Below, piece by piece: positions 2,165 to 30,098 of a DNA stretch of 64,000 nt. The position numbers were made by a program, and so were the translations under genes. Source of the stretch: Blasia pusilla (taxonomy: Eukaryota); contig CM114271.1 in NCBI GenBank assembly GCA_050084515.1, positions 42,284,001 through 42,348,000 on the forward strand, written 5' to 3'. Position 1 is the stretch's first letter; each line of letters opens with the position of its first letter. Below the pieces are notes generated by a model, which saw nothing but the letters and a program-made list of their open reading frames with translations, was not told the DNA's origin and ran no database searches.

Positions 2165-3674
2165 AGTTTCTGAACCTAAGGGAAATTTTAAAGGTCTTTA
2201 CAGGGAAATACTAAGTGACTTGTGTCTTCATCGAGAAGATATCTTTGCGAGGATAGCCATTGGAAGAAGAAGAACTAGTCGCCACAAATCGGCAAGCCCA
2301 TCCGCTGGAGGGTCACAGCGCTTCATCACAAAACGCTAAGAGATTTGGGTTTAGGGTCACGACGCTTCATCACGAAACGCTTCGAGGGATCTATCGTGCA
2401 CAGGAGTAGATTAGACTGTCAAGGAGGAAGAACTGATCCAACATGCACCATGACGAGAAAGGAAACACAAGCAACCAAGGTAGGGAGCATCACTCCCAAG
2501 TCCATCACGACTCTTGCGTCATCATCTCCAAGTCCTCGTTCGGCGAATAAGATAAGGCAACAAGAAATAAAGGAGCGGGAATGATATGCACAGGCACGAG
2601 GTTCTAGAAAAATGTGTTCTGGAGGAGCTCCTTCGGAGCAAAATGCCAAGGCTAAGGCATCGAAGGCCTTGAAGAAAAGAGTCGCAAATGAGACACGCGA
2701 GAAGAAGCGTCTTGACGCCTCTGTCAGAAGAGTAGAATTGGCGAAAGCTCGAAGGGAAAAAACAATCGCCAGTGAAGAAAGCCTTGCTTGTCCAACAGAG
2801 AGTGTTGAGATGCAGGAAATGTCTTCGATGAGGTCTGGGGACACCATGAATCTAAAATTGGCTGAGGAAACGGCCAAATTTCAAGTGACGGATGATGAGG
2901 TCATGAGAACAGCAAGTGTGGAGATGGTGGACATCTTTGAAGAAGCAAGAGAAGAGTCTTTTTCATCTTTGAGCCCAATGGAAGAAATCGACCTTTATTA
3001 GATCGATGAGTTTCTCGTGGACTTGCCAGCTGTTGTCCCAGAGCAGCTAGCGGGCTTGGATACTGACCCAATCTTTGAGCGGGTAAGAAAAATTTGGGTT
3101 ATGTGAAGGCTCATTATGCAACTCATTGGCAAAACATTGTATTTTATTGACTTGGTCCCCATTATGGCAGGTTGTTAAGCAGATGGCACTGATGGATGGC
3201 TAGAAGGCCCCAAGAATTCCACTTTTTCGATTGCGAACAATGGAGTCCGTCCGTGAAATTCAATTGGAAGAGGACATTGCAAAGCTCAAACAATCGGCAG
3301 CAACTGCATCCTACATCGACAGCTTCCCTTCGTTCTATGTTCAGCCTTACGATGAACATGGAATCCAGCTCTGGTGATGGAAGAGGACTTGGAGGCGTTG
3401 GATACTTTCTGGAGGATGAGAGATCAGGAGTTCAGAAGAGCGATTGAAGGAACCCAATTTAGCTGGATACGGAACCTTTACTTGTTCATGTGGGATGGAA
3501 ACCACATGTACATGGTGTGGACACAGTTTGCAGAGGAGTGACTAAATTCATTGGAGGCGCATTTTTGCGTGAAGGCAGTCGTGCTCCATCCATTTCCTCA
3601 TCACATGGCAACGGTGGAAATGGCAATGCATGCGATGAATACGTAAGTTTCCTCTTCCTTAAGTTTGATTCCTT

Positions 3675-4487
3675 CAACCCGTCGTTGTCCGACGGGTTGC
3701 ATAATTGGAAAGCTTAAAGATGGGCAAGAATGATTTGAGTCTCTTGCCACCATCCTATTTGTGGTCAATGTCATAGTCAAGCAAACCGTCGGAGACCGAC
3801 GGGTTGCCTACTGGCCAAGCACACCACATTAATCCGGGATACTAAAACCAATCGAACATCGACGGGTGGAAAAATGATAGCATGATTTATTTTTTCTTCA
3901 ATCCGTCCCACTCCAACGAGTTGTACAATGAGAGGTAACAAATCATCGGACGCCTAAAAGCAACTCGTCGGAGTCCGACGAGTTGCTGGACTGTTCGCTA
4001 TTTTTTGGATACTTTAGGCCGAAAGCAACTCGTCGGACTCCGACGGGTTGCATTTCCCCGCCAGGGTAGGTGGTTCGAAACCGATAACTCGCTTTTAGGC
4101 GTCCAATTCCAGCTTTACAGGGCCATTGCGCAACCGGTCGGACTCCGACGGGTTGATATGTGGAGTTTTTAACCTGGAAACCAAGGAATAAGAGGAACCG
4201 ATCGGTTGGACCAGAGAGTCACAAAAAGAGAGTGCAACCCGTCGGACTTTGATGGGTTGCAATTCTCTCAAGAGTGTTGCAATAAGTGTAACACAAAGAT
4301 AAGTGTTGCGACTCGTCGGACTCTGACACGTTGCAACATTTACCTATGTGTTACGATTTGGACCCCGATGGATTGACAGAATTACGATCCGTCTGAGTCC
4401 GACAGGTTGCAACACTTATCTCTGTGCTACCATTTTGACCCCCATGGGTTGACAGAATTACGACTCGTCAGAGTCCGACGGGTTGTA
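3675..4487. repeat. About 11 copies of the 27-29 bp palindrome in intron 2 of copy A
   Basis: Examples: 3960 GCAACTCGTCGGAGTCCGACGAGTTGC, 4025 GCAACTCGTCGGACTCCGACGGGTTGCA, 4233 TGCAACCCGTCGGACTTTGATGGGTTGCA. Confidence 0.9.
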
Positions 4488-6633
4488 GGAACCCGATAGC
4501 TTGGAGTATTCTTACCTTGTGTTTGGATGTGCAGGATTGTATCCGAGGGGAACGTCAGCCATCACTCGATCCAGTATTGCGATAGGGTGAGGAAGGTGCT
4601 TACGACGCACCCGGCAGAGTACAACAGATTCCTGGGCGACGATCTGGTAAATGAGATGTTGGCGAAGGGAGCTCAAATAAAAAAGAAGACCTGGGCAAAT
4701 ACCTTCATTTCCCAAGATGCAGACGTCACAATGCTATGTTGGTCCAAGATCCAGGCCGCCAAGAAGAGTGCTTTGTTGGAACTGGAGCGAAGAGAGAACG
4801 CATCAGCGTTGGAATGTGCAAAGTTTATTCAAGCTGCCGTATCTGCAGCTACAAAGTACACTGCAAGCAAGATGCAGCATTACATTGCGATTCTTAACCC
4901 CGATTTTGGCTCGGAGTTTTACAAGTAGCTCAAGGCGATAATCAAGCGCCAGCGGAAGAGAGATGAAGATCCACAGGGTCGGATCGGAGAAACAGTGTCT
5001 CTGGACCATGTGCCCAGGTTTGCGCTATCTGGGATATCCGAGTTTAGGCAAATCCGACTGATGAAAATCAGTCTCGAGGGCACTGAGGCCCAAAATTGGG
5101 TGGCACACGGGTACCCTCCGGGAGTTTCATATCCAGTGATCTCCCATTGGCTACGGGAATGGTCATTCTGGGACGCATTGCGCCTTCTCAGGAAGTTCAT
5201 AATCCTGGGTCTACAAGCGGAGCTGAAGAAGATTGAGCCAGTTCCAGAGGAAGCAAACCAAGAGGTTGCACAAGATTTTGAACTATGGCTTGATGACATC
5301 AGAGATAAGCCCATGAAAAACTCAGGATTCAGGATGATGTTCAAGAATCACATCCTCCCTCAGGCAGACCTGGATGAGGAAAGAGACACCAAAAAATGGG
5401 ATTTTGCAAAGAAGAAGCGGGATCTTCACGACCAGGAGGCCGAGTCATCTCGACAAAGAGTTGGCTAGCGGATGGTGTATAGGTACCTCATCAATTGTAT
5501 GAATGCAGGTACCTGGCAAAAATTACCGGCAGCCTGCAAATTGTGGGCTTCTCTACTTGATGGAGAGGGATTCTCCATGTACGACATGGAGATGGGACAT
5601 GGAATGTTTGACTGGGAGGTTATCAATTGTCTAATCTGGTCGGACTTCAACAACCTAGAGGACATTACAGAAAAAAATCTATGCGTGATGTATGATGCAA
5701 TGGTCGCAGGTAGGGATGACATTCCGAACTGTCGACATTCCGAACTTCCGAATCGTGAAGCCTGACAATTTTTTCCAAGGAGATGTGGAGGAGCAAGCCC
5801 TCAAGACAGTGGAGTTGGTGGCAAAGGTCGTCACCGCCAAAGACAAATCCACAGCAGGTTTGAAAGCCAAGGTGAGGGGATCGAGGAATTCCGAGCCCGA
5901 GTCTTCTAGAAAAGAGGCTGAGTCCTCAAGGCCAGAGGCGGAATCGTCCGGGCAAGCGAGGCGAGAGGGCCAACCCAGGTCCTCATCCAAGAAAACTCTT
6001 ATGGAGTCTGAGGTAACAGAGACTCCCACAAGCCTAAAGAGAAGCGAAAGCGGGAGGCGCCTCGTTCGTCCGAGGGAGGAGATAAGGATGTGGAATACAC
6101 TCCTTCATCCTTGGGCATGCATAGGGAAACAACCACCGGGGAAAATGTCCTTATTCACTTGACTCATCTTGTCAATGAGCTGCAGAGTTTCACTTCTCAT
6201 GAGTCGACACCTGCCATCGACAAATTGATCGTGTTGGTACGAAAACTCCTTCGAAACGGGCACGTCCCCTATACGGTGCATGGGGTTGTTGAGGAGGTGG
6301 CAATGGACCTCCTCATTGTGGATTTTCATTTTGGGTTTCACTTGTGGGACAACAATCCGTCTGACACTATCCCTGACTGGAATATCCTGCTTTTGTATGA
6401 TCAGATCGTGATGTTGTTTTCTTTTGCCGACGCGTATCTGAGTGACAGGGATTGTTTCTTGGTCCTCACTGGAGGGAGCGAAGAGAGCTCTTCAACCTTC
6501 AGTGCGTGAAGAGGTCGCTGAAGTGGAGGACGGCGCAATCATGGGTCATTAAAAACAAGTATCCACTCAGATCAGCGACGATTCGAGTCCGGGTAAGTCC
6601 TCTTTTTCAACAAATTGAGTTGGAACATAAATT

Positions 6634-7141
6634 CAACCCGTCGAACTCCGACGGGTTGCATCTCTGCATGCAACCCGTCGGATCCCAACAGCTTGTGTCT
6701 TTCGCTGTTGCAATGTGTCTGAAAATGACGGGTTGCAAATTCACCAACAAGTCTCCATTGACTCCAACCCGTCAGAACACAACGTGTTGCAAGTAGCACT
6801 GCTTTTCCACATGTTTCTGGAGTCATGCAACCCATCTGAAAGCAACAAGTTGTTCTCATATTTGGAAATTCTCAATTCTAAACAATTGTATTCAGTTGTA
6901 AGCCAACCATCGGACTCCGACAGGTGGAGGTTTTGTCCAGCAAGATGAGCAACCTGTCGGCTTCCGACGTGTTGCTCATGGCCAACTCGTCGAACTCCGA
7001 CAGGTTGCTATTCTGTCAGGCCTATAGGCTAAGTTCATAGGGATTGGTAATCACTATGGACTAGTATGATGGGTTGAAAAGCAACCCGTCGGACTCCAAC
7101 AGGTTGCTCCTCTGTCTAGCCAAATGAGCAACCCGTCGGAT
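6634..7141. repeat. Palindrome cluster in intron 3 of copy A
   Basis: Examples: 6634 CAACCCGTCGAACTCCGACGGGTTGCA and 7081 GCAACCCGTCGGACTCCAACAGGTTGC, plus several degenerate or half copies. Confidence 0.85.
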
Positions 7142-8267
7142 CCTCACGTCTACTAGCTTTTTCTTTTTGCTGACATTATTTTCCACCGGCTTGTTTATAG
7201 ATGGATCACTCATTTGTCTATTGCTTTGTAAGGCCCGAGCACAACTTCCAAGTGTTCAAGATCCCGGATCCAGTGGATCCATGCTCTAATGGGTACAGCT
7301 TAGATAGTCTCTACAATTCCCCCCCAGGAATTTACATGCAGGATGGGACCCCCTTACTTGGAGGAAGGGAGAAGTCACCTACCTTGATGCAAACGCTCAT
7401 CAAGCTCTGCTTGAGGCCGGGTGACTTGGTCTTTGACTTAGTGGGCCCATCAAGGGCGAGTATCAAAGGCGCCTAGCATAGTGGCAGGAACATTCTCTGC
7501 CTTGAGGGAAGGCCAGAACTTTTTGACCTTTGCAAAGAGGCAAAGGCGGATTACGAGAGGCTAGTGGGAGTATACAACTCTCCTCCAAAGCCAATAGCTC
7601 CAGTTCCAGAACCACCATTGATATTGACACCATCATCACTTCCTACTATTCCAAAAATTGGGAGGGCAAAGCCGACAATAATTCTGGAAGAGCTATCAAA
7701 TGATGACGAGTGAGTTCAAAGATTTATTGGACCCAGCTTGAGTGAAGCATTTTGGAGTAGGAATTTAGTGCTTTCCAAGGACGGAGCACATATTGATACT
7801 GCATGGGTGTCACCTTGCAGAGCACACAAGATTTACTGTCGAGGAAGGCGTTGGGAATCAAATCATGTTACATGGGACCATTATGGTGTATCTAGGGGGC
7901 GGCCAAGGCTCTCAAATTCCCCAATATTTATGATCCCCGTCTACAATCGGCCAGAGGAGCCACTTGTATCCCAAGACATTCCTTTTGTACAGGAACCTAG
8001 GAGAGTTAGGAGTAAATTTGTAGATGACAAGGTTGAAGAAATCATAAACTATATTTCCAAGCTTCCCTCGGATGTAATAAAGGACAAGAAGTTTTTGAAC
8101 CATGATGGTTTTTGTAAACTTTTTCTGAATTGTTTTTCGTTCTTGTCGATTGTAACCTGTCGATTCCGACGGGTTGCTTTACCTACCTAATTTGCAACCT
8201 GTAGGATTGCGACGGGTTGCAACCTTACACTTGGACCACATACTTGGAAAAAATGGACAAAACTCAC

Positions 8268-10277
8268 TTGCCGCATAAAGTTTTCCCATTGCCTCATACA
8301 CACGGTCCACCAACTGAGCCACCAACACAACTCTTTGTATTTCCCCTCAATCTCATGTTTTCTCCACCACAAATGAAGCTCTTCTTGGCACTCCATGGCT
8401 TGTTTCAAGGTTTTGCTATCCTTGCAGCGTTGAAGTAGAGCTACATGCTCTATTTTCTTAGTCTCCTTGATGGAGGATTTTGTGTAGCGAATCACAGACT
8501 ATTGCCAATTGAAACCATCCGATCTTTCCCTTTCTAGTTGAACCCCCAAAAAAAAAAAACACTTCCCTGATCCCAATCCATCCCGGTTTGGCATTTTCCA
8601 CCATGAAACCATATATTTCAGGAGGAGGTCTTTTGTTTTCCATCACCACCTCCAGTAAGAGTAACCAACACATCTTCAATTTGCCAACATCTGCCGCTTT
8701 CACCTCACCCAAAAAAATGGTTTTGAGACCCTTTTCCACATGGTTGTAAACGTATGCACGCATGGTCAACCATCCATTTAACACCCTGTAGCAAATATCA
8801 AAGCTAACCCAGCTCCCAGATCTTCTCCCTCCTTCATTCTGTCAATAAGATCCAGGCTGCTAGACGGGCCTGTAGTAGACATTTTGAAGACATAAGCTCT
8901 AGATCCCTCGCCTCCTTGGCCCATGAACTCCCATCTCTCGATGGATGGAAACCGTGAGTTGGCCTTGATCCTGGAAATGGCATTCATTTCTGCGCTCTTT
9001 CCATCAAGTATTCGTATTTGATGCAGTAAGTTCTTGAAGCTTTCATGATCAGCCAAGAATGCAAATTTTCCCACAATTGCTTCTCCTCAACTGGGGTGAT
9101 CTCCCCTTGGCCAAGGATACCCAGCTGTTGTTCACAAACTTTTGATGTAGTTGTCAATTTGATCACTCGTGGCTTTGATCCTGGAGAATTTTTATACATC
9201 TCGGCCACTTTCTATGCCACATCCTCCTTGATGTGTCTCTAAATTGCACCCGTGATAGGATGAGTGTGAGACCCAACATGAATTTCCAACCTTTTATACT
9301 CACACGTAGAATTGGAGTCGTGCACTATGAAAAAAATATAAGCCGGAAAAGCTCTAAAATAGAAAGAGGAGGCTTGACAGTGCGGATATCGATGGCCACC
9401 CGGAAATATGGTCGTACCCACAACGTAAGGAGTTTTTGCATTTTTGGGAGGGAATTGGGAAGTATTCACGACTCTGTTCCTCTGGAGGAAGGGGCATCCT
9501 AGAATTTTTCACTCCAATGCTCCAAAGCATTGGCAACGAGACACAATCCAAGGACCACCTAGGATTGAAGCGCTCGTCCGCTGCAGTGTGCACCATCGAT
9601 GACAGTCCAATTTTTCGGTCCATACCCTTCAGGCCGCCTCCATCTTTCTTCTGAGCTGGAGCGACAAGTGGAGGCAGCTCAAAAATGCAGTCTCCATCAT
9701 ACGTTGCGGGTAGCTCATCCACGATAATGTGCTTGAACAATTTCAAGGGGGGAGAAGAAAGCAAAGAATTCCCTGAAACTTGAAGCAGGAAAGAGTCAGC
9801 AGATGTTGAGTTAGACATGTTTCCAACAAATCCTATGAGATCGACGATATCCGAGATGTCCACAGCTTCAACTGTGACATTTTGTGCTTGTGAAATTGGA
9901 GTTGATGTTGGATCGGCCAAAGCAGCCGTGCCAAAGATGGAGCATGGAGCACTCAAAGGTCTCGGACCATCTTCATGTGTCGAAGTGGTGATCAGAAGTA
10001 AGCCATAAACTCTGAATTGTCCATTGGAGTAGGGAAAGAGGTTCCACACTTTGGAGCCTCCAATCTCCGGTTGGATTGTTTCACCAATGATATCATCTTG
10101 CCCATCAACCTTGACATCCTTGGATACAAAGATGGTTTTAATCTGGAGAAGAAATCGGAGTGAGAGGAAATGTTCTTCGACAATTACATGAATGTCACTA
10201 GATTGGGCTCGAATTATCTCCGATTGAGGAAGGCCCGCTAGATGACTGCCACATGTGAGCTTCACATAATTGTCCAT
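8268..10277 (-). pseudogene. MULE-type transposase, copy B (GCM-like Zn domain plus N-terminal DDE part; 3' part missing)
   Basis: Reads MDNYVKLTCGSHL...FKHIIVDELPATYDGDCIFELPP...HVGSHTHP, then RAYVFKMSTTGP...FDICYRVLNGWLTM...GFMVENAKPGWIGIREV. Ends at a GT donor (8267). Homologous to 13199-17167. Confidence 0.75.
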
Positions 10278-10526
10278 TTGGTAAGACCAAGAATGATTGC
10301 CAAGATAGAGGAATAAGAATAAGAATAAAAATAAAAATGTTGAATTTATAGTGAATAGTGCCTGTTTAAATTCTGACAGAATATGTCTGACATGGTGTTG
10401 GTAGTTAGGTGACTAGACTTTCCAGAAAGGAATATTCGAACATGTTGCTAGTGGGAAAGGATTTGCATGGCTTCCTTGAACCTGTGGAAGCCAGACCGGT
10501 TGGAATATCGACTCAAGGGAAAGGTC

Positions 10527-11285
10527 AACCCGTCAGAGTTCGACGGGTTGGAAACCGTCGGCAGGGATGTCGAAGGAACGAACCCTGAACTCATGTTGTC
10601 AAGTTGAATCGAGTTTGGGGAGGGCCGGTTCAACCCTTCGGAGTCCGACGGATTGCAAATTCTTGCACTCAAAATGGCGCTCCCTTAGGTTCAGTGTCTG
10701 GGTTCCGCAATCCCTTAGGTTCCGTGCAACTCGTCGGAGTCCGAAGGGTTGCACGAATCAGGCTGAATGGTCCTTGTCAAAGCCGTTGGAGTCAGATGGG
10801 TTGCACGGGATACAAGTTGAGGGAGCCCGTGCAAGCCTTTGTGGTGTGACGGATTGCAAACGTGGGCATGATCAATGGTCCCCATACAACCCGTGGGAGT
10901 CCAACGGGTTGCATAAGAACCAGGCTAGATGGAGGAACGGGTTGCAGGAATTGTGAACGATGAACGGTCCACGTGAAACCCATCGGAGTCCAACAGGTTG
11001 CAGGTTACCCAGGCTGGATGGGCCCTCTGCAACCTGTCGGGATTCGACGGGTTGCAGGATCTGAGCAGGATGACTTCCTACAACCCGTCGGGGTCCGACG
11101 GGTTGCAAGAACTGAGCAGGATGACTGCGTGCAACCCGTCAGAGTCCGACGGGTTGCACGTCGAGTCCTGGGCATTGCAATTGCAACCTGTTAGGCTCCG
11201 ACATGTTGCAGGCAGACCACGCATAACTTGTACCGTAAGGGTTCACCATCGTACAGCTGATTCCCTGTCGGACACCAACGGTTGA
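10527..11285. repeat. Regularly spaced palindrome array (51-55 bp period) between divergent transposase and ParB-MTase genes, copy B
   Basis: Palindrome starts at about 10725, 10776, 10830, 10885, 10974, 11028, 11079, 11130 and 11182, with roughly 22-26 bp spacers that are partly related to each other. Confidence 0.9.
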
Positions 11286-11517
11286 GTCCAACAGCTCCGA
11301 AAGTATACAAGGACGAGTTTCAAGGCTTTTCACTATTCCATTCTATACTTTTCTGCACTGCTTTCAAATCCCCTGTTCACACAAATACAAAAACTGAGTT
11401 TCCAATTACTCGGACATTTCGACGGTCATTGTCTCTTCATTTTGGGGCTATAACGGTTCGAGTTGAATCGATTCTTTTCAGAGGAAAAGAATCAATTCAA
11501 TTCTCAACTTATTTCAG

Positions 11518-12372
11518 GATGATTTGAAAAAAAATCCAAGCAAGCAAGGTTGGGAGCTTCTAGCCCAAGTCAGGCGGAACTCCATCTTCTGTTACGCAAC
11601 GCACGCCCGTAGATGTACCGCGAGCGGGAAATTGAAATGAGGAAGCACGAAACGTTGGCAAAACTTGCTTTGGAGAAGCTCGAAAAGCAAGAGGAGAAAC
11701 GAGAAGTGAAATTTCTCGCAGATGCAGAGAAGGACGAGAAGAAATGCATGGAGCCCAAGATCAAGCAGAAGAAGAGGCACGATACCGCCTTCCGGGAAGT
11801 CGAACTGGCAAAAGCAAGGAAGGAAAAGGCAGTCGCTGTAGAAGAAGAACCCTCCCAACGACCCACCAAGAGTGTGGAAATGGAGGATGTGTCATCCATG
11901 AGATTGAGTGGTCCAATGCAAGAGACCAATATTGATGAGCTTCCAGCGACCAACAAGGAAGGTGTTAGAACCCCGACTGTCGAGATCATGGAGATCTCGG
12001 AAGGAGAAGGAGAAGAGTCTTCTGGATCTCAAAAGCCTGTTGAAGACTTCAATCTCTTTGAAATTGAAGAGTTTCAAGAAGACTTGCCGGATGAGGCTCC
12101 AGATCTAGAGTAGCTCGTTGGACTTGATATGGACCCAATTTTCAAGCGGGTAAGCATTGTTCTACAATTCTCTCTTCATTGCATTAGTGCCAGTCATTTT
12201 GGAAATTGTGCATTGATTGTGTGACATTCGTGCAGGTGGTGAAGGAGATGGCACTGGTTGATTGCCCGAATGCCCCGAGGATTCCTCTATGCCGACTCCG
12301 AACGATGGAATACATCAAAGAAATCCAATCAGAGGAAGACATTGACAAGTTAAAGCAGTGTGTGGCAACAGC
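11518..12372 (+). pseudogene. ParB-MTase fusion gene copy B, 5' part only (divergent subfamily), cut off in exon 2 by a TIR
   Basis: The ORF at 11613-12113 is homologous to exon 1 of copies A and C (ELAKARKEKA, SVEM..SSMR). It has the same intron position (AAGCGG|GTAAG ... GCAG|GTG) and exon 2 VVKEMALVDCPNAPRIPLCRLRTMEYIKEIQSEEDIDKLKQ. Confidence 0.8.
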
Positions 12373-12381
12373 TTTAGAGCT

Positions 12382-12801
12382 GCGGTAAGAGGAGAGGAAG
12401 AGAGGAAGAGAGGAAGAGAGGAGAGAGGAAACTAGGGTTTGCAGGAGTAGCAAGTGGAGGCAACTCAAAAATGCAATTACCATCATACGTGGGCGGCAGC
12501 TCGTCGGCAAGAATGTGCTTGAACATTTTCAAGGCCAGAGACGATAGCAAACTATTGCCTGATACTCGCAAGAGGAACGAGTATGCGCACAGAGGGCCCG
12601 GCTAGTGTCCGATAGATCCATTGAGGTTGACGACATCCGGAATGTCTTCAGGAAGTACAACATTGTTACGAACATGTGAAGTTGGAGTCGATGTCAGATC
12701 TACTGAGCTAGGGGTTGCAAACGTAGAGCTCGGTGCACTAGGAAATTCTCGACCGTCTACTTGGGAAATAGAGGAATTCAGTGGCAAGCCGTAAACAAGG
12801 T
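12382..12801. mobile_element. Deleted derivative: left TIR joined to an about 360 bp transposase fragment
   Basis: GCGGTAAGAGGAGAGGAAGAGAGG... at 12382 is followed by 12441-12796, a near-identical direct copy of about 16546-16901. Confidence 0.65.
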
Positions 12802-13198
12802 GCCGTAAGAGGAGAGGAAGAGAGGAGGGAGGAGAGAGGAAACTACCTTCAACCCAAAGAGATACTTTTTTTTTACGAGAGTTTCCTATGATTTGAAGAG
12901 AGTTTCCGTTGGGTTGAAGAGAGGAAACTTTTTGTGTGATTTTTTTTGCACTTTTCTTCTCAGTTCTTAAGCACTCCCACAGATTTATTTTTCTCTTCCA
13001 CATTTTAGCAACCCATGTGAGTCCAACAAGTTGCAATTTGAACAAAATTTAGAAAACTGAAAAATCAGTGGAATCATAAATGTGGAACCAATCACTTTTT
13101 TCCATCCAAGGTCTGGAAAAAATAAATCATTGCCTCAGGCTGAATAGAGCTCAAGCTCAAAGTGAAGGTTTTGGAAAATGAAAGTACAATCTAAAATC

Positions 13199-16100
13199 TC
13201 ATTTTGCATCCTCAAAGTGGTTTTTTAGATTACTTTGCACTTCTTTGAAGGACAGAATTGGTTGGTGGATTCCTACTCCTACCTCCGACTCTCTTAAAAC
13301 TACAAGCAACACATAGTACATGTGCTTACAAGGGAAATACCTTTTGCCACTTGTCTCTCTTTGGACAAAGTCATCACATGAACATGTGGGAAAGCAACAG
13401 ATGTGCACCACATACACCCCTATGACACTTGAACTTACAGTGTTGTTCTTGACCCAATACATCCTTCCTATTCCATTGCCACTGTGGACATCTTTGGTGG
13501 CGATGATCTCCATTTTTGCCTCTCGAGCTAATGCAATTTGCTTTGCTCTCTCCACCGTTGGCCTACACATTCTCTTTCTCAACACCCCATTTCTAGACTC
13601 AAACAGAAATAGTGGATTGAGATCATCCACCTTCTCCGGGTATATGTTGACATCAATCTTGGGTTGAATACGAAATGCGAAGGTCTCTTTAATGCAAACA
13701 TGCTCCAAACTTTCTCCGTCTACGACTTTGAAATCGGCACTTATAAGATTGTCCATTTCGTCTTGAGTGCAATTCGTACATGCGACAATGAGCCAAATCA
13801 TGGGGATATTCCCCGGAGCTCCAATGGCAGCCGGTTAAGACTTCCGGAAAGCGCAAGATTCATTTGGGCAGAAGAAGTACTTCAATTGATCCCCGATCCT
13901 CGTGAAACGATCAAAGGTTTTGAGTCCCCAAAATCCAGGCAGTGGTTGTCCAATCCTTGTACAGTTCTTATTTAGGAAAGTGCTGCATGCTCTCCTAATG
14001 CCATCAGATCCTGCCCTGCAAGTGGGTCCACCTCCAAGGTTGCTCCGAGATATATGCCACTGTTTCAGGTTGCAATCCACCTCCATGACCGGAATCCCAT
14101 ACTGTTGAATCACCCCAGTGACCGGATGTTGCGAACTTCCAGCAACGGAGGGCTTTTGAAATAAAACACTCACTGATTTTGGAGAAGTTACTCCATCACG
14201 GATTTGGGAGCAATCCAGGGTCCCCAAATACCTGGGCGGCATGATTTCCTCATCCAAATCAATCACCGTGTTTGTTCCTCGATGTTGCCTCTTCACCTGC
14301 CTGAAGTCAAGATACTTATCTGGTCTCCACGAGTCTCACTCGGACTGCTCTACCACCATCTGTATGGGACGTCTTGAAACGCGCCCACAAATATCCCCAC
14401 CAATGTGTACGTCTTGCTCGAGGGAAGTTCCTGCTACGCACCGGTTGAAGGCTTCCACATAGAGTTTCTCATCACCAGATCTCACAGCCGCCCTGACATA
14501 GAGCTCGTAGATTGAAGGCCCCCTTCCTTTTGTTATGCCTTTTGTGAGGAAGATATGGGATGTTGCAGACTGTAGCATTGCTCTTGCTTGGTCTTGTTGG
14601 CATGCCTCCACAAGTGAAATTCTTTGGCATGCTTGTGACAACCTCCACGAGGAATGAACACTTTGTGCTCCACTTGTGTTGGGGTAGAGGGCATTTTCAT
14701 GAATGTTCAATCCCTGCAACGACCCCAATCTGAGAAGGGAACGAAAATAGCTCAGAAGTCAAAGAAATAAGCTACCTGTCAGAACCAGACGGGTGCAAGG
14801 CCGAGGCATCCCATGAACGACTTTGCGACCTGTCGGTTCCTGACGTGTTGCAACACCCAGGAACCACCTAGTGCAACCCGTCTGATTTCGACCGGTGCAA
14901 GTAAATTTGGCCATGCAACTTTAGTGCCCTGTCCTTTTCCAACCGGTTGCACACTCACGCAACCCGTCAACCCGTCAGATTCCAACAGGTTGCAAGTAAA
15001 TTTGACCGTGCGACTTGCAACCCATTGATTTCCGACTGGTTGCACACTTAGGAAACCAGTCCGTTTCCGACGGGTTGCACACTTAGGCAACCTGTCGCAT
15101 CCGACAAGTTGCTTGGTTTCTTTGGTTTGAAATCCCTATAGTGCGCACACTTCTCAACTTGAGCTGCAACTTTTCAAACAATTCTCAGGGTGAGCTCGAC
15201 AAGACGAAATAGTGAACTCATATGCCGCATGAAGTTTCCCCATTGTCTCATTCGTATAGTCCACCGACTCAGCCAAGAGCACAGTTCTTTGTACTTCCCC
15301 TCAATCGCATGAGAACCCTAAACCCTTCCTCCACCACCCATGAAGTTCTTCTTGGCATTCCATGGCCTGTTTCAAGGTTATGCTGTCCTTGCAACATTGG
15401 AGTAGAGTGACATGTTGTGTCCTCTTATTCTCCTTGATGCAAGATTTGGTGTACCGAGTCAGAGACTGTTACCAATGGAAAGCATGTGACCTTTCCCTCT
15501 CCAGTTGAACCTCTCCACCCCATAACACTTCCCTGATAGCAATCCACCTATGTTGTGCATCTTCAAACTGCCAACATCTTCTGCTTTTACTTCATAGACG
15601 AATATAGTTTTGAGTCCCTTCTCCACATGGTCATAAACGTGAGCACCCATTGTCAACCATCCGTTCAGCACTCTGTAGCAAATATCAAATCTTACCCAGC
15701 TGCCGTAAAGATCTTCCTCTTCCCTCCTTCGATCTATAAGATTGAGGCCACTCGGCGGACCTGTCGTTGACATTTTGAAGACATAGGCCCTAGATCCTTC
15801 GCCTCCCTGGCCCATGAACTGCCATCTCTGAATGAATGGAAATTTGGAGTTGGCCTTGATTTTGGCAATGGCATCCATTTCGGCCGTCTTTCCATCCTGT
15901 ACCCGTATTTGACACAGCAAATTCCGGAAGCATTCAGGATCAGCAAGAAATGCGAGATTTTCCTCGAGTTGTTTCTCCTTAGCAACCATGATCTCGCCCT
16001 GTCCAGGGATTCCAAGCAATTGTTCACAAATTTGTGATGCTGTTGTGAGCTTGATCACTCCGGGCTTTGAACCCGGAGAGTTTCTATAGACCTCAGCCAC

Positions 16101-17167
16101 TTTATTCGCCACATCCTCCTTGATGTGTCTCTAAATTGCATCGGTCACAGGATGAGTGTGGGAGCCAACATGAACTGCCAGCCTTGTGTACTTTGACGTG
16201 GAGCCCAAGTCGTGGACAATGAAAAATATGTATGCAGGACACGCTCCAACCCAGAAAGGGGATGCATGACAATGAGGACATCGATGGCCTCCCGGCGGTA
16301 TGGTGGCACCGACCTCATATGGAGTTTCTACATTCTTGGGGGGGAATTGTGACGTATTGACCCGCCCGTTACGCTCTAGATACGGGCATGCTGGACTTCT
16401 ACACTCCAAGGCTCCAACGCATTGGCGGCGGGAGACAATCCAAGGACCATCTGGAGCTGAAGCACTAGTCCGTTGAAGGCTGCACCATCGATGACAATCA
16501 GACTTTTTGTCCATACCCTTCAAGCGTCCTCCATCCTACTTTTGAGCAGGAGCAGCAAGTGGAGGCAACTCAAAAATGCAATTACCATCGTACGTGGGCG
16601 GAAGCTCGTCGACAAGAATGTGCTTGAACATTTTCAAGGCCAGAGACGATAGCAAACTATTGTCTGATACTTGCAAGAGGAACGAGTAGGCGCACAAAGG
16701 GTCCGGTTGGTGTTCGACAGATCCACTGAGATTGACGACATCCGGAATGTCTTTAGGAAGTACAACATTGTTATGAACGTATGAAGTTGGAGTCAATGTC
16801 GGATCTACTAAGCTAGGAGTTGCAAACGTAGAGCTCGGTGCACTAGGAAATTCTTGACCGTCTACTTGGAAAACTGAGAAATTCAGAGGCAAGCCGTAAA
16901 CTCTGTATTGACCATTTGCTAGAGGTAGGAGATTCCATACTTTACGGTCTGCAATCACTGGCTAGATTGTCTCACCTATTATGTCCTCCGTACCGTCCAC
17001 CCTAACATCCTTGGACACAAAGATGGTTCCAATTTGGAGAAGAAATCAAACTGATTTTCATCCACTGGTATGAAAGACTCACGAGCTTGCGGCCGAACGA
17101 TTTTTGATTGAGGAAGGGCCGCAAGATGACTGCCACAAGTGAGCTTCACATAACTATCCATTCCCAT
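13199..17167 (-). pseudogene. MULE transposase copy C: GCM-like Zn domain, DDE domain and SWIM zinc finger (near full length, disrupted)
   Basis: GCM/WRKY-type Cys/His pattern: RRQCVGALECRSPACP...CPHC...CPAY...HVGSHTHP. DDE region: WVRFDICYRV (first D), HAFHW (C/DxxH position) and NTSGAQSVHSSW (third acidic position). SWIM: CSCDDF...PCKHMYYV. A palindrome-filled intron lies at about 14730-15220. Confidence 0.8.
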
Positions 17168-17243
17168 AAGATTCCACCAGGAGGCGACTGAGAATAAGAA
17201 TGAGGATAAGAACGGGAATGGGTATGAGAATGAGAATGTTTAA

Positions 17244-17249
17244 TTTATA
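17244..17249 (-). promoter_or_regulatory. Candidate TATA box of the transposase gene (also 10345-10350 in copy B)
   Basis: CTATTCACTATAAAT on the minus strand is conserved in both copies, about 70-80 bp upstream of the ATG. Confidence 0.5.
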
Positions 17250-17341
17250 GTGAATAGGGACTCAGATTCTCCTGACACAATTTGACTGACAAGATGAAGT
17301 TTGGTAGGAGAGATTTTCTGACATGATGGATTCAATTATGT

Positions 17342-18270
17342 TGCAACCTTTCGGAGTCCGATGGGTTGCAGAATTTGGGAATCACATACGTGGGTTGCGA
17401 AGCACCCAGTTCCATTTTTTGTTTCCGTGTCCAAATGCAAGTTGAAACCCGTCGGAGTCCGTTAGGTTGGTATCCCCTTCTTGCCGACCAATGGTCTTTT
17501 GAGTCGATTTTGCTAGCATCAAACACGAGACATCGCTTGCATTTGCTAAGGCAACCAATCATGGGGGACTGTTACGGGATTGTCCAACTCAGGGTAGACC
17601 TTGTGACCCGTCGGATTGCAAGGGGTTGCCTCGGAACTATGCGTTGCCGCATTGTTACCCGAGGGATAGAAAAGCGTGCAACCTGTTGGTAACCAACGGG
17701 TTGCCCAGGTACCTCGCCTATTACCCCAAGATGAGGGAAGCTTGCAACCCGTCGGCCTCCGACGGGTTGCGCAAGTGCCTTGCCTTGAAAGCTTACATGA
17801 AGGAAGTGTTTAACTCGTCGGCCTCCGATGAGTTGCGCGGGTAGCCCGCTTTGTTATCCCAAGATGAGGGAAGTGTGCAACCCATCGACCTCCGACGGGT
17901 TGTGCAAGTGCCTTGCCTTGAAACGCTTACTTGAAGGAAGCGTGCAACCCGTCGGCCTCCGACGAGTTGCGCAGTTCCCCACCTTGTTATCCCAAGATGA
18001 GGGAAGCATGCAACCCCCCGGTCTCCGACGGGTTGTATGGGTACCTCGCGTTCTTGCCCAAAGACGGCGGAGGCACGCAACCTATCGGTCTCCGACGGGT
18101 TGCCAGGATAGCTCGGCTTTTTAACCCAAGGAGGATGGATGCCGACAACCTACGGGAAGCGTGCAACCCGTCGAAGCCCTCGAGTTGGTTTTTTTCACGT
18201 CCAGACTTCCATAACGGCCGACACATCGCCGTCCGAACGACGATGCAACCCAACGGTCAGCCCAACGGCT
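17342..18270. repeat. Palindrome array (66-67 bp period, alternating spacers) between divergent genes, copy C
   Basis: Starts at 17677, 17743, 17809, 17876, 17943, 18009 and 18076. Spacers alternate between ...TTATCCCAAGATGAGGGAAG and GCAAGTGCCTTGCCTTGAAA...TGAAGGAAG types. Confidence 0.9.
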
Positions 18271-18277
18271 CGAAAAG

Positions 18278-18285: not shown

Positions 18286-18547
18286 GGCAAGGGTTCGCTC
18301 ATTTCTGGTTTTTCGTGTCGTGATATTGATTGCTCTTCCGCGCAGCAGCTGACCAGATACCAAGGGGCACTTTACACAGTGACTCATCGCGAGACTCATC
18401 GCAAGACGATTCGAGCGAACGATCACGAGATGATTCAAGCGACTCATAAAGGATACACTTCACGACATCAGCAAGGCGACTCATCAAGGCGACTCATTGT
18501 GCACAGAAAGTAACTTTGTTGTCGAGGAGGAGGCATTTTTTGGAACA

Positions 18548-21500
18548 ATGACGAGGAAAAAATCTCAAGCAAGCAAGGGTGAGAGCTTCACTCCTAGGTC
18601 CATGAGGACTCCTACGTCACCATCTCCAGGGCCTTGTTCGGCCAATGAGATAAGGCAACAAGAGATCGAGGAGCGGGAAAGGGAAGCGGAGATGCACAGG
18701 CAGGAGCTTCTTGCAAAATGTGTTTTGGAGGCGCTTGAAAAACAGAATGCAGAGGTTGAGGCGTTGCAAGCCTTGAAGAAAAGGATCATCGAGGAAAAGC
18801 TTGAAAAGAAGCATCTGGATGCATCGGTGAGGAGAGCAAAATTGGCAAAAGCTCGAAGGGAAAAAAGCGATTGCTATTGAAGAAAGCCCGGCCAAACCAA
18901 AGTGTTGAGATGCGGGAAATGTCCCCGATGAAGTCCGGGGACACGATCAATATAAAATTATCTGAGGAAACGGCCGAGGTTCAAGTGACGGACGATGAGG
19001 TCATGGGGACCGCCAGCGTGGAGATGGTGGAGATCTCTGAAGAAGCAGGAGAGCAGTCTTCATGGTCTCTGAGCCCGGCGGAAGAAATCTACCTCTGTCG
19101 GATCGACGAGTTTCCAGTGGACTTGCCAGCTATTGCCCCAGAGAAGTTGGCGGGCCAAGACACCGATCCAATCTTTGAGCGGGTAAGAAACGATCTTGGA
19201 TCTTTGAGTTATGTGAAGGCCCATGTTTCAATTCCTTGGCAATTCAGTGTAGTTTATTGACTTTGTCCCCGTTGTGACAGGTTGTAAATCAGATGGCACT
19301 GATGGAGGGCAAGAACGCCCCAAGAATTCCACTTTTCGGATTGCGAACAATGGAGTACGTCCACAAAATTTAGTCTGACAAGGATATTGCGAAGCTGAAA
19401 TAGTCGACAGCGACAGCATCTTCCGTAGACAGTTTCCCTCCGTTCTATGTCCAGCCTTACGATCAACATGGAACCCAAGCGTTGGTCACGGAGGAGGACT
19501 TGGAAGCGCTCGACACATTCTGGAGGATGAGAGATCATGAATTCATAAGAGCGATTGAGGGTACGGAATTCAGTTGGATGCGGAACCTCTATTTCTTCAT
19601 CTGGGATGGAAACCACAAGTTCATGGCGTGGACTTAGTTTGTAGAGGAGCGCCTAAATTCATTGGAGGCGCATTTTTGCATGAAGGCACTCGTGCTAAAT
19701 CCATACCCTCATCACATGGCGACGGTGGAAATGGCCATGCATGCCATGAACACGTAAGTTTCCTCTTCCTTTTTTTATGATTGCTGCAAACCGTCGGACT
19801 CTGACGAGTTCTTTAACTAGTGGTAACAAAACATCGGATGCCTTAAAGCGACTCGTCAGAGTCTGACAAGTTGCTTGAATGGCCGCTCTTGTTAGGATGT
19901 TTTTGGCCGAAAGCAACTTGTCAGAGTCCGAAGAGTTGCTTGACTGGCCGCTCTTTTAGGATGGTTTTGGCCAAAAGCAACTCGTCGTAGTCTGACAAGT
20001 TGCTTGACTGGCCGCTATTTTTTGGATGTTTTTGGCCGAAAGTATTGCATTCGCCGCCATGGGCAGGTGATCGGTGTAGGGGAGCTTGATTTTTGGCGTC
20101 AAATTGCAGCTTTACTTGAAATTGCGCAACCTATCGGACTCCAACGAGTTGGTATGTTCACTTTTTCCGCGGAAACCACTCTCTCAATACAAATCATCTG
20201 ACAACCTGTCGGAGTCCGACGGGTTGTAACCAGGCAATCACAAATCTGAATGCAATCCGTCGGACTCCGATGGGTTGTAATATTTAGCTCTTAGCTACCA
20301 TTTCGACCATGAGTTGTAGCGACCTGACGGAGTCCGACGGGTTGCAAGAACCCATGTAGCTTGCAAAAATTCTTATAGTGTGTTTGGATATGCAGGATTG
20401 TATCCGAGGGGAACGTCACCCACCACTGGATCCAGGATTGCGATCGAGTGAAGAAAGTGCTAACGACGCACTGGCAGAGTACAAGGGGTTCTTGGGCAAC
20501 GCTCTTGTTAATGAGATGTTGGGAAAGGGGGCTCAAATCAAAAAAAAAGACTTGGGCAAATATATTTATTTCACAAGATGCAGCCGTGACAATCCTTTGC
20601 TGGTCGAGGATACAGGCCGCCAAGAAGAGCGCTTCATTGGAGATGGAGCGGAAGGAGAACCTGAGTGCGTCTGAGCATGCTAAGTTCATCCAAGCTGCAG
20701 TGTCTGCAGCTACAAAGTACACTACAAGCAAGATACAACACTACATTGCCATTCTCAACCCCAAACTTGGCCCCGATTTCTACAAGGAGCTGAAGGCCAT
20801 AATCAAGCACCAGTAGAAGAGGGATGAAGATCTGCAACGTCGGATTGGGGAGAAAGTGTCTCTTGACCGCGTCCATAGATTTTCCTTGTCTAGAATTTCG
20901 GAATTTAGGAGAATCAGACTGATGAAAATCAGTCTCGAGGGCACATAGGCCCAAAAGAGGGCGGCACACCATCCTCCGGGTGTCTCTAATCCAGTGATCT
21001 CCCACTGGCTTTGTGAATGGTCATTCTGGGACGCGTTGCGGCTTCTCGGGAAGTCCATGCTTGTGGGTCTCCAAGAGGAGCTGAAAAAAATAGAGCCAGT
21101 TCTGGAGGAAGCAAACCTGGAGAGTGCTGAAGATTTTTAACTTTGGCTTGATGACATCTGGGACAAGCCCGATCTTGCTAGACTTGAACGACCCCAAGGA
21201 CATCATCGACAAAAATCTTCGACGGGTGTATGATGCAGTGGCTAAAGGTAGGGACGACATCCCAAATTTCGTGCACCTTGAAGAATTTTTTGAAGGAGAT
21301 GCGGAGGAGCAAGCCCTCGAGACAGTGGAGCTGATGTCCAAGGTCGTCACCGCCAAGGACAAATCTACAGCGGGTCTGAAAGCAAAGGCGAGGGGATCGA
21401 AGAATTCCGAGGCCAAGTCTTCCAAAAAAGAGGCTGAGAATTCAAGGCGAGAGGCAGAATCGTCGAGCGAGCAGGGAGAGAGGGCTGGACCAGGTCCTCC

Positions 21501-22118
21501 ACCAAGAAAACTCCAAGAGAGTCCTAGGTAATAGAGACCCCAACAAGCCGACCGCAGACTCGGGAAAAACGGAAGCAAGAGGCGCCAGGTTTGTCCGAAG
21601 GAGCAAACCAGGATGTGGAATACACTCCATCATCCTTGGGAAGACATAGACAAACAATGATCCGGACGAGAGTCATCATTCCTTACACGAATCTTCTCGA
21701 TGAGCTGCAAAGTTTCAATTCCCAAAAGTCGACACCCGCCATCGACAAATTGACAATGCTAGGACAGAAGCTTCAACGAAACAGGAAAGCTCCCTGGACG
21801 GTCCATAGGGAGGTCGAGGAGGTGGCGGTGGATCTCCTCGTCGCTAATTTTCCCTCTGGGTTGCGCTTGTGGGACGACAATCCGTCTGACAGTGTCCCAG
21901 ATTGGAAGGTCCCTCTTACCTATGACCAGATCGCGCTCCTGTTTTCCTTTGCAGATGCTTATCTCAGTGACAGGGGTTGTTTCTTGATCTTGACTGGAGG
22001 GATCGAGGATGAGCTCTTCAACCTGCAGTGCGTGAAGAGTTTGCTGAAGTGGAGGACATGGCAATCGTGGGTCCTCAAGAATGAGTTTCCACTCCGATCA
22101 GCGACGAGTCAAATCCAG
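18548..22118 (+). pseudogene. ParB-MTase fusion gene copy C (internal deletion near 21170; last exon missing)
   Basis: Same exon/intron layout as copy A, with a palindrome-filled intron at 19754-20395. Reads YFFIWDGNHKFMAW (19602), VDLLVANFPSG (21846), YLSDRGCFLILTG and WQSWVLKNEFP, then a GT donor followed by palindromes. Confidence 0.75.
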
Positions 22119-22305
22119 GTAAGGGCTCTAAATCCATATACAATTTGTCCTCGTCTGACGGGTTGCATCTCTGCATGCAACCCATCAGATCGTCTGAGCT
22201 CGTGACTGCGATGTTGCAATCCGTCTAAAAGCGACGGGTTGCAAATTTACCACAAGTCTCCATTGGGTAAATGCGACCCGTCGGAAACCGACGGGTTGCA
22301 TTTCA

Positions 22306-22879: not shown

Positions 22880-23133
22880 AGAAACTAGGGTTTCTTACCT
22901 ATTTTTCTTTATTTCTATTAATAGAAAAAAATTCCATCTATCTAACCCTATATTGCATCAGGATACAATATAGGGTTAGATAATCCTAGTAACGCTACTC
23001 CATAAACCACCGACGTCATATTACTATGACTCCTTCGATGTCTAAGTCCGAACCATCAATCTAGGCTTTTCCTCACACAAGGGGGCCGATCAGATTAACG
23101 ATGCTCAGAGAAGTGGATGTTAAGAATCCAACA
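22880..23133. repeat. Dispersed repeat fragment, inverted homolog of 51937-52170
   Basis: Shares GAACCATCAATCTAGGCTTTTCCTCA and GAGAAGTGGATGTT..GAATCCAACAC with the reverse complement of 51937-52170. Confidence 0.8.
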
Positions 23134-23169
23134 CAAAATCTGTCGTGAGGGGACAAAGGAGGAGGAGAA

Positions 23170-25070
23170 GTTTGCACACCACCCACAAAGAGTTTCGGAC
23201 CCCGTCCTCTCTCAATGGCTAAGAGAATGGTCCTTCTAGGATGCGTTGCGGCTTCTCAGCAAGTCCATTATTGGGAGTCTTCAAGCCAAGCTTAGGAAGA
23301 TTGAGCCAGTTTTGGAGGAGGCTAGCCTAGAATCAATTGAGGAGTACGAACTGTGGTTGAAAGAGGTGCATGATAAGCCAGTCAAGAACCTAGGATTTTG
23401 GATCATGTTCGTGAAACACATTCTACGATAATGGAATGTCGACGAGGAGGAGATTAGCGACCCCAAACAAAGAGATTTTTCCAAGAAGAAGAGAGATCTT
23501 CTTGAGCAAACGGCCAAGTCCTCCCACCAATGAGCCACACAGGGGATGGTGTACAGGTTCTTCGTGTACAATGTGAATGCAATACATGGAGAAAGTATCC
23601 AACCACCTCAAAAGTATGGGCTACGCGTCCAGATGGTGAATGATTCTCCATGTACAACGTGGAGATGGCTCAGGAGATAACGGGATGGGAGGTTCTCAAT
23701 TGTGCACTCTAGTTGGACTAGAACGAACAAGGGGAGATAAATGACTACACCTTGATAGCCTTCCATGAGGCTGTTGTGGGTGGCGAGGAGGACATACCCA
23801 ACTTCTTGATGGTTGAGGAGTTCTTTGAGGTTGATGTAGAGAAGTAAGCCCTTGAGACCACAGATCTGGTGTCCAAGATGGTCACAGCCAAGGATAAGTC
23901 AATGGCGGGCCCCTTGGAGAAGGCCAAGGGGTCCATGCAGTGTGAAGCTAGATGCTCAAGGCGGGAAGGATGGGCAAGGGGGGGCCCAAAACAAATTCTT
24001 GTTGATTCGGAGGTTATAGAGACCTTGACAAGCATGCATCAAATTCATGAGAAGCAAAAACACGAGACCATAGTTCCTCGAAAGGAGGAAAAACATATGC
24101 TAAATACCCCCCTTTCTCTTTAGGCAAGCAAAGGGATGGCACGAGTAGGAGCACAATCCTCCTCCATCAAGCCTCTCTGTTGGATGAACTTCAGAAATTC
24201 TTGAGTGAGGAGTCCACAGTTGCCTTGGAGAAGGTGACATTGTTAGGACGAAAGCTTAGAAGAAACGGCCACGCCCCATGGACTATGAATGGGGAAGTTG
24301 AGGATGTTGCAATGGATCTCCTCATTGCAAATTTTCCATCCGGATTCAGGTTGTTCCTTGATGATCCACTCAACCTTGTCCCGGACTGGAACTTGCCACT
24401 CACGTACGATCAGATCGCGTTGTTGTTCTCCTTCGCAAACGCGTACATGAGTGATAAGGGATGTTTCCTTGTTTGACTAGAGGAAGCGCAGACGAGAGTT
24501 AGATCTGCTTTTCAAAGCTGACAAAACATTGTCTTCCTTGAGTCAAGGACATAAATTTTTGCACTCTCCCATGAGGTCTACGCGGATTACTAGAGGCAAT
24601 TGAGAGTGTTCTAGTCGCCTCCACACCAAAATGCACCTGTAAAAGAGCCATTTGTGGTGATACCATCGTCACTACCTGTAATTCCAAAAATTGTGTGGCA
24701 AAGTGAGCGATGATTTTGGAAGGGCTCTCACATGTTAACAAGTGAGTGCATTTAAGCGTTGGTTTAAAAGCGTTTTGGAGCTAGGCACTAGTGGTTTGAA
24801 GTGGAGGAATACATATTGATTCTGAATGGCTGTCACTTTGCATAGCATACAAGATAACTTGTTAGGGAAATTTTTGGAAAAAATCTCCGATTACATGGGA
24901 TCAATATGGTGCACCCAGGGGCAAGACTCTCAAATTCCCCTTCTTTTTCAATCCCCATCTACAATTGTCAAGATAAGCCACTGTTTAGCCCAAAAAAGTC
25001 CAATGTACAGGAATCCATGAGAGTTAGGAACAATTTTGTAGATAACGAGGCAGAAGAGATCATAGACTAA
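23170..25070 (+). pseudogene. ParB-MTase gene copy D fragments (older, more diverged)
   Basis: KIEPVLEEASLESIEEYELWL..DKPVKNLGFWIMF and MDLLIANFPSG...YMSDKGCFLV are homologous to about 5110-6500. About 24880-25070 is homologous to about 7870-8060. Confidence 0.75.

Positions 25071-30096: not shown

Positions 30097-30098
<2 letters not shown>

Follow-up and report, generated by a model that had tools for sequence, protein, structure and literature searches.

Methyltransferase and ParB-like genes in eukaryotic elements

Fusions of a ParB_N domain to an N6_N4_Mtase domain are described as common in viruses and phages (10.1101/2025.10.10.680097), and comparable combinations have been reported from eukaryotes. 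The Ectocarpus transposon Sola1-1_Ec32 carries an accessory gene with ParB-like and N4C/N6A-methyltransferase (MTase) parts, which is transcribed opposite to the transposase, and green and red algal transposons are mentioned in the same report (PMC12477816). In chlorophytes and chytrids, Dam-type MTases are described that are fused to ParB and helix-turn-helix domains (PMC4738411). The Plavaka elements of Bostrychia harbor the genes PAG2 and PAG3, and tandem inverted-repeat arrays lie beside a ParB-domain gene (10.1101/2025.02.11.637652). Besides Sola1 of Ectocarpus, the transposons with accessory genes of this kind comprise Plavaka and Mutator elements of Bostrychia and Chondrus. Finally, DN4MT1 of Marchantia and N4CMT of bdelloid rotifers, eukaryotic N4C writers with a bacterial origin, are reported as active enzymes with a TSPPY catalytic motif (10.1101/2021.02.12.428880). 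Here, we describe a gene family that recalls each of these systems in certain aspects. It is located in a stretch of 64,000 nucleotides of the Blasia pusilla genome (GenBank assembly GCA_050084515.1, contig CM114271.1, positions 42,284,001 to 42,348,000 of the forward strand), which is called the window in what follows and from whose first nucleotide all coordinates are counted.

The window contains, within its first 25 kb, four copies (A to D) of a spliced gene with an MTase-like 3' part. They form a small family of decayed, multi-exon, MTase-like genes, probably the remains of one large DNA transposon or of a nest of such elements. Like the accessory genes of Ectocarpus and Bostrychia, with which it can be compared by description only, the family combines a eukaryotic gene structure with a DNA-modification domain of prokaryotic type. 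The arrangement is reminiscent of theirs, too: the gene is convergent with a second gene that encodes a SWIM zinc finger, and it lies among palindrome arrays. The family differs in that no transposase is recognized here, the ParB part is unconfirmed, the lineage is liverwort-related instead of algal and the copies are dead. With MpDN4MT1a/b and bdelloid N4CMT the family has in common that an amino-MTase fold of prokaryotic type occurs in a eukaryote, which in the case of DN4MT1 is even a liverwort, but TSPPY or SPPY is missing, and the N-terminal half of the fold, used as HMMER query, did not retrieve these proteins. No transposon gene from land plants with ParB-like and MTase parts turned up in the literature searched by full text, which gave the Ectocarpus paper alone for this combination; among the papers listed in a broader search, none combined ParB with bryophyte terms.

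Gene structure and past coding selection

Copy A (2447-8059, plus strand) is the first of the four copies. Exon 1 (2447..3082), which was recognized by blastn to copy C and by tblastn to copies B and C, encodes an N-terminal region rich in Lys and Glu, a putative coiled coil according to the first-pass annotation. It is followed by intron 1 (3083..3170, phase 0) and by exon 2 (3171..3642), which holds the sequence WDGNHM at 3491-3508 and had been proposed as a ParB/Srx region; no family supports this assignment. Intron 2 (3643..4534, phase 2) contains eight copies of a 27-bp palindrome. Exon 3 (4535..6592) begins with a long stretch that matches no family and ends with the N-terminal half of the MTase fold. 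Intron 3 (6593..7200, phase 0), with six palindromes, splits this fold, the C-terminal half of which is encoded by exon 4 (7201..7713) ahead of a Pro-rich tail and the terminal TGA at 7711-7713. The first-pass annotation had placed the gene at 3171..7560. There is indeed a gene at this position, but it starts upstream, with exon 1 at about 2447-3082, and extends down to the stop codon at 7711-7713.

The three introns predicted by that annotation are correct to the nucleotide. All of the junctions (3082/3171, 3642/4535 and 6592/7201) are of the GT...AG type, preserve the reading frame (phases 0, 2 and 0, respectively) and recur in sister copies. Intron 1, with its GT-AG borders, is found at 12150-12235 in copy B and at 19183-19280 in copy C; in the latter, the donor sites of the other two introns and the start of exon 3 are conserved as well.

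Past coding selection was assessed by counting the substitutions between copies A and C separately for codon positions 1, 2 and 3. These amount to 30, 23 and 52 in exon 1, to 10, 5 and 19 and to 8, 7 and 27 in the stretches 2a and 2b of exon 2, and to 33, 28 and 86 and to 20, 17 and 36 in the stretches 3a and 3d of exon 3, which is a two- to threefold excess at the third position. The counts are flat in intron 2 (56, 57 and 52) and in intron 3 (11, 10 and 13). Third-position bias is also absent from a part of exon 3 with low-complexity Ser/Glu/Lys sequence (24, 28 and 24) and from the comparison of A with D from 7450 on. As the exons show the excess and the introns do not, the exon frames must at one time have been under coding selection. 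The exon-intron path is, by this substitution pattern, real, and coding selection acted while the copies diverged. Chance open reading frames (ORFs) are ruled out as an explanation by the codon-position pattern together with the homologues in other species. As far as can be read from its sequence, copy A is a multi-exon eukaryotic gene with a prokaryote- or phage-type, beta-class N6/N4 amino-MTase fold in its 3' part.

Decay of the four copies

The expectation that removal of the introns would leave one reading path did not hold for copy A, which is broken by at least six in-frame stops and about four frame changes. The stops are found at 2999 in exon 1, at 3201 and 3539 in exon 2, at 4926 and 5466 in exon 3 and at 7474 (TAG) in exon 4; the frame changes lie at about 3367/3368, 5690-5765, 6012-6160 and 6446-6509. 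Copy C (18434..22265, plus strand) consists of exon 1 up to 19182, exon 2 at 19281-19753 and exon 3 at 20396-22118. It is 77-80% identical to positions 2447-6760 of A and has in-frame stops at 19371, 19401, 19635, 20814, 20946 and 21138. It stops short within intron 3, where an inverted piece of the companion gene adjoins. Copy B (11519..12373, plus strand) extends from exon 1 through intron 1 into exon 2, where it is truncated after 46 codons. Copy D (23033..25078, plus strand), with 66-75% identity, is truncated at its 5' side and retains parts of exon 3 and the tail of exon 4; the last part of exon 3, the whole of intron 3 and the initial 83 codons of exon 4 have been lost by deletion. By these lesions, each of the four copies in the window is a pseudogene, from which no product would be made.

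Homology of the methyltransferase fold

The MTase homology of copy A is contained in two segments of the plus strand: the N-terminal half (6255..6598, from motif IV to about motif VIII), delimited by tblastn with proteins from Riccia and by hhalign to viral MTases, and the segment with motifs X, I and II (7363..7539, exon 4 residues 55-113), delimited by hhalign, PDB and tblastn comparisons. A Pfam scan of single ORFs revealed almost nothing, and the ORFs of the N-terminal half were without match.

The evidence is most direct for exon 4, the single in-frame stop of which was read as X in the profile searches. This exon matches positions 165-220 of the 221 positions of the Pfam profile N6_N4_Mtase (PF01555) with E 0.013 and 15.9 bits, which is below the cut-off. 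Among the PHROGs, it matches phrog_3008, annotated as DNA methyltransferase (E 7.8e-6), and two more MTase families; among the PADLOC models, it matches six type II MTases (E 0.005-0.04). In PDB, M.RsrI ranks on top (E 0.4). With tblastn, 150 phage records were hit and, among the matches listed, 24 of 25 fall on annotated DNA methylase genes, the 25th being the same SfV gene, marked as "unknown" in an older record. Matches to plasmids were found in 173 records; 38 of the 40 listed are on MTase genes and the other two are unannotated. NCBIfam gave no match for any piece of the gene.

For profile-profile comparison, a reference set of five phage genes was used, each confirmed as a PF01555 member (E 1e-24 to 2e-42). 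The exon 4 family, consisting of copy A and the fragment in D, aligns with these five proteins in hhalign at 95.4% and E 1.8e-8 over motifs X-I-II. The gene shares the order IV...X-I with the phage and plasmid MTases of this family, such as gp43 of Gordonia phage Hollow, gp60 of Yersinia phage PY54, orf48 of SfV and M.RsrI, and exon 4 is 33% identical to the phage proteins over 57 columns of motifs X-I-II. It differs from them by its introns, by an N-terminal extension of about 900 residues and by degenerate forms of motif IV (DFHF or NFPS versus DPPY/F) and of motif I (VGPSR versus FGGSG).

A further set was built from viral fusions. Of 80 viral loci, 26 have a long N-terminal extension; two with stops in frame were dropped, as was one whose frame coordinates and length equal those of another locus, and 20 of the 23 scanned contain both ParB_N and N6_N4_Mtase, ParB_N being above the Pfam cut-off in 16 of them. 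A five-row family alignment of the N-terminal half matches these 20 IMG/VR fusions on the TDPPY block and the next strand (hhalign P 0.0024), and the C-terminal half matches them with P 6.6e-4. Each comparison was accompanied by 40 column-shuffle controls, none of which equaled the observed score: the N-terminal half scored 31.4 against the fusions (best shuffle 17.0), and the C-terminal half scored 32.1 against the fusions (18.3) and 59.5 against the five phage MTases (19.0). The MTase halves are collinear with those of the viral fusions, in which, as here, an unrelated-looking domain is located N-terminal to the MTase. The viral proteins are, however, only 415-517 residues in length and have no long linker, and homology of exon 2 to their ParB part is not above noise.

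Relatives of the N-terminal half are scarce. An exhaustive HMMER search with an intact ORF of 225 codons from copy C yielded two proteins at E <= 0.001 among 1,835,955,588 representatives, namely the hypothetical proteins KAL3687003.1 of Riccia sorocarpa (488 residues, E 3.8e-11) and KAL2653794.1 of Riccia fluitans (305 residues, E 3.7e-6), the sole members of the family that were found. Both proteins run collinear with exon 3 in copies A, C and D, across the block resembling motif IV, and stop at the same exon 3 boundary. They differ in being uninterrupted, in lacking equivalents of exons 1, 2 and 4 and in having DLPT and DLPK at motif IV; identity is 24-36%. Word-index protein searches returned nothing besides the Riccia protein used as query, and a PDB profile search with the family of the N-terminal half gave nothing relevant. 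The neighbors of the Riccia protein in the ESM Atlas are UPF0020/N6_N4_Mtase clusters at 0.85, which serves as a lead only. An AlphaFold2 model of that protein, built on eight alignment rows, has a mean predicted local distance difference test (pLDDT) score of 47.1 and is unusable; it is also the sole source of the "helices" ascribed to the linker in exon 3.

Since both halves match in beta order, intron 3 must lie inside the MTase fold. The C-terminal part of the protein is, on these comparisons, a descendant of a bacterial or phage beta-class N6/N4 amino-MTase, with the halves in the order IV...X-I. The motif order proposed at first reading is borne out, with a block resembling motif IV upstream and X-I downstream, each half scoring better than its 40 shuffles. 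The same applies to the assignment to prokaryote-type amino-MTases unrelated to the C5 enzymes, in which PHROGs, phage tblastn and hhalign agree.

Degenerate motifs IV and I

The signature that defines amino-MTase catalysis is motif IV, (D/N/S)PP(Y/F/W). All of the phage reference MTases have DPPY/F at this position. Copy A has DFHF (6321-6332), and copies C (21846-21857) and D (24330-24341) have NFPS. The canonical form is found in none of these copies, nor in either of the two uninterrupted Riccia proteins. The motif I region of copy A reads GDLVFDLVGPS (7420-7452), with VGPSR opposite FGGSG and with the preceding Asp kept. This motif is seen only in pseudogene A, where late decay is inseparable from the ancestral state.

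Because even the Riccia relatives lack a canonical motif IV, the fold seems to have been non-catalytic, or altered in its chemistry, before the copies decayed. It is more likely to have been a pseudo-enzyme binding S-adenosylmethionine or DNA, or an enzyme with altered chemistry, than a standard writer of N6-methyladenine or N4-methylcytosine, as far as these motifs can tell.

Exon 2 and the ParB hypothesis

It can be imagined that the gene descends from a true, phage-like ParB/Srx-MTase fusion. Exon 2 would then encode the N-terminal, CTPase-fold domain of ParB with the Box II arginine mutated to Met or Lys, the fusion would have been acquired by a transposon and the introns would have been gained later. 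Such an origin is a possibility to be taken seriously, though one that we tend to doubt. The combination as such is well represented, given that 20 of the 23 N-terminally extended viral MTase frames carry both domains and that transposons of algae have accessory genes with ParB-like and MTase parts (PMC12477816). In addition, the exon 2 domain is located N-terminal to the MTase, and the palindrome arrays recall parS.

The motif on which the proposal was founded is present: copy A reads WDGNHM, with ATG as its last codon, and copy C reads WDGNHK at 19602-19619, with AAG, both exactly as claimed. These codons occupy the position of the Box II arginine (GxxR/DGxHR), which is reported to be needed for nucleoside triphosphate (NTP) binding (10.1101/2025.10.10.680097). 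The NTP-binding arginine is absent from both copies that reach the motif, which argues against such a fusion.

The similarity searches also speak against the fusion. With exon 2 as query, no family was found in Pfam at E <= 10, including ParB_N (PF02195) and the members of its clan, and PHROGs, NCBIfam and PADLOC gave no match at E <= 1. Searches against PDB sequences and profiles gave neither ParB nor sulfiredoxin, and tblastn against phages gave four records without any ParB. Compared with the 20 viral fusions in hhalign, exon 2 reaches P 0.041 over 14 columns, with a score of 20.5 that is equaled by one of 40 shuffles. This best alignment (query 32-45, template 69-82) does lie within the ParB part, in the helix preceding the GxxR box, and is collinear with the MTase matches, which is in favor of the fusion. 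Nevertheless, the half of exon 2 that bears WDGNH[M/K] does not align with the ParB box (P 0.32), and no similarity was detected to a plasmid ParB_N set of three sequences, two of them distinct (P 0.38). The other exons gave no match to the ParB part of the viral fusions. An AlphaFold2 model of exon 2 has a mean pLDDT of 37.0 and is unusable. All of these tests have little power, because the query is decayed and its alignment comprises only two to three sequences; in addition, an insertion of about 35 residues seems to be present in exon 2.

In the PDB search, the best-scoring alternative to ParB for exon 2 was a match of residues 31-95 (3261-3455 in A, 19371-19565 in C) to SET/NAP histone chaperones. 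It is non-significant (E 0.09) and was treated as due to chance, the Pfam NAP family giving no match.

The ParB-like domain of the first-pass annotation thus comes down to a resemblance at the motif level, with nothing above noise in profiles, hhalign or structure model. A ParB identity of exon 2 is, in our estimation, conceivable but somewhat improbable, and this estimate derives mostly from the prior that the phage and algal ParB-MTase fusions provide.

The companion gene and the palindrome arrays

The copies of the MTase-like gene are accompanied by a second family, here called gene T. Its longest copy, T2 (13139..17162, minus strand), has an exon a at 16961-15462 and an exon b at 14758-13202, each with two in-frame stops, and encodes a Cys/His-rich N-terminal region and, toward the end, a SWIM zinc finger. 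Copy T1 (8261..10412, minus strand), which is positioned tail-to-tail with copy A, consists of the N-terminal part only, and further pieces of this companion family are found at 12441-13048 (minus strand) and 22296-22855 (plus strand). The substitutions between T2 and T1 number 85, 75 and 181 at codon positions 1, 2 and 3, again with an excess at the third. SWIM is the only match of the gene T product (best E 5.6e-4), and its ORF gave no usable match in the ESM Atlas. Copies B and C are both interrupted by gene T fragments. These fragments occur in inverted orientation, the segment 13139-13697 being 88% identical to 22855-22296 on the minus strand.

The palindrome already mentioned for introns 2 and 3 is a perfect one of 27 bp, GCAACCCGTCGGA-N-TCCGACGGGTTGC, for which 64 strand matches with at most three mismatches were counted versus none expected. 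With up to four substitutions allowed, there are 41 sites, 40 of which lie between 3675 and 22298. None of the 41 is in an exon. Twenty-one lie in introns 2 and 3 of copies A and C, and 16 are in two spacers upstream of B and C; of the remaining ones, two are in the intron of T, one at 8195 and one at 27457. Some of the sites are orthologous between A and C and hence are not independent. The core positions have a high information content, which drops to about 0.1 bit in the flanks. The sites are arranged in tandem arrays with periods of 51, 65-66, 76 and 133 bp, among them an array of eight units between T1 and copy B (10526..11156) and another of eight units, with a period of 66/133, between T2 and copy C (17344..18102). 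This pattern looks like the one expected for sites of a dimeric DNA-binding protein, a role that is predicted from the symmetry and distribution of the sites.

Transposon wreck or host gene cluster

As an alternative, the locus could be a host gene family, that is, a cassette of two genes, MTase-like and SWIM, that was locally duplicated and is decaying, with the palindromes as an unrelated satellite. In favor of this, neither termini nor target-site duplications were found, the two Riccia proteins bear plain hypothetical-protein annotations and are encoded on contigs of 49 and 77 Mb, and the copies, which differ by 20-34%, are old. On the other hand, the copies are truncated at differing points and interleaved with inverted gene T fragments, which is typical of nested insertions and not of tandem duplication. 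Furthermore, the palindromes track the gene copies, with all but one of the 41 sites confined to the region from 3675 to 22298, and other repeat families and a fragment of a PIF1 helicase are present nearby. A host family therefore seems unlikely. An expressed, functional host N4C/N6A DNA MTase similar to Marchantia DN4MT1 is highly improbable: the fold superfamily is the same and DN4MT1 shows that such enzymes work in liverworts (10.1101/2021.02.12.428880), but copy A has at least six in-frame stops and several frameshifts, the other copies are broken, motif IV is neither SPPY nor DPPY in any copy, and the HMMER search with the N-terminal half found two Riccia proteins only and no protein resembling DN4MT1.

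The transposon wreck is accordingly the reading that we favor, and there are several points that weigh against it and against its MTase component. No terminal inverted repeats or target-site duplications were found in the window, and in gene T no transposase domain was recognized and, SWIM apart, no family of Pfam, PHROGs or PDB was matched. As to the palindromes, they may instead be connected with the product of gene T or form a small satellite. The Pfam score of exon 4 (15.9 bits) is below the gathering score of 26.7 bits, the intron keeping the two halves from being scored jointly, and the N-terminal half reaches only P 0.063, in the same register, against the smaller set of five proteins. 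Motif I and motifs X-II are available from one copy only (A), plus a fragment in D. Finally, motif IV of the Riccia proteins is taken from gene predictions that terminate at the exon 3 boundary, and these genes may be incomplete or silent. The proposed origin in a transposable element is plausible in that the gene is repeated and lies within a nest of repeats. We infer "transposon-borne" from the context, because no terminal inverted repeats, target duplications or transposase domain were found.

The ancestral protein probably had, in this order, a Lys/Glu-rich N-terminus, a domain of about 160 residues with DGNH[K/M], a region of about 550 residues without family match and the MTase fold. In intact relatives, this protein would bind to the palindrome arrays of the element that encodes it, with the MTase-like fold acting on that DNA. 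In the window, four copies are contained in 25 kb, each paired or interleaved with SWIM-gene fragments of the other strand. One may speculate further that liverwort-related land plants host large DNA transposons with a self-recognition module, in which palindrome arrays in the introns and the upstream spacer of the accessory gene and a very divergent ParB-like DNA clamp or binder, joined to a remodeled, phage-derived MTase fold, would serve to mark or shield the DNA of the element itself. This elaboration we hold to be rather unlikely.

Other features of the window

A dispersed repeat family with 80-92% identity among its members occupies 1182-2164, 44203-45457, 48737-49509 and 50394-51287. 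The member at 1182-2164 abuts the 5' side of copy A and probably marks where the upstream region was cut off. A fragment of an ORF resembling PIF1 helicases (46659-47000, minus strand; E 2.9e-5, just under the Pfam cut-off) may be a Helitron remnant. Exons of a host gene of the ferric reductase/NADPH-oxidase type, with matches to Ferric_reduct and NAD_binding_6, lie at 58018-60470 (minus strand), and an exon with an FAD_binding_2 match, as in flavoproteins of the succinate dehydrogenase/fumarate reductase type, lies at 35029-35391 (minus strand). A tandem duplication at 62026-62442 has a unit of about 100 bp with (CT)n tracts, and similar (CT)n-rich sequence occurs near 30000-30300. An Rfam scan of the window detected no family.

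Concluding remarks

Prokaryote-type amino-MTases are rare in eukaryotes and, where they are active, as in bdelloid rotifers and in the sperm of Marchantia, they make unusual epigenetic marks. Recent work on brown and red algae has noted accessory genes with ParB-like and DNA-modifying parts in giant transposons. In this window, the gene is a fossil. It indicates that a phage-type MTase fold also entered a liverwort-related plant lineage. There, the gene gained spliceosomal introns, one of which interrupts the fold itself, multiplied as a repeat and lost the canonical catalytic motif. Should intact members exist, they could show whether such proteins, along with palindrome arrays in introns, serve transposons for self-recognition and self-modification. 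If the self-recognition reading is true, it would carry the design of a ParB-domain accessory gene combined with an inverted-repeat array, which in the literature searched is confined to algae, into the embryophytes.

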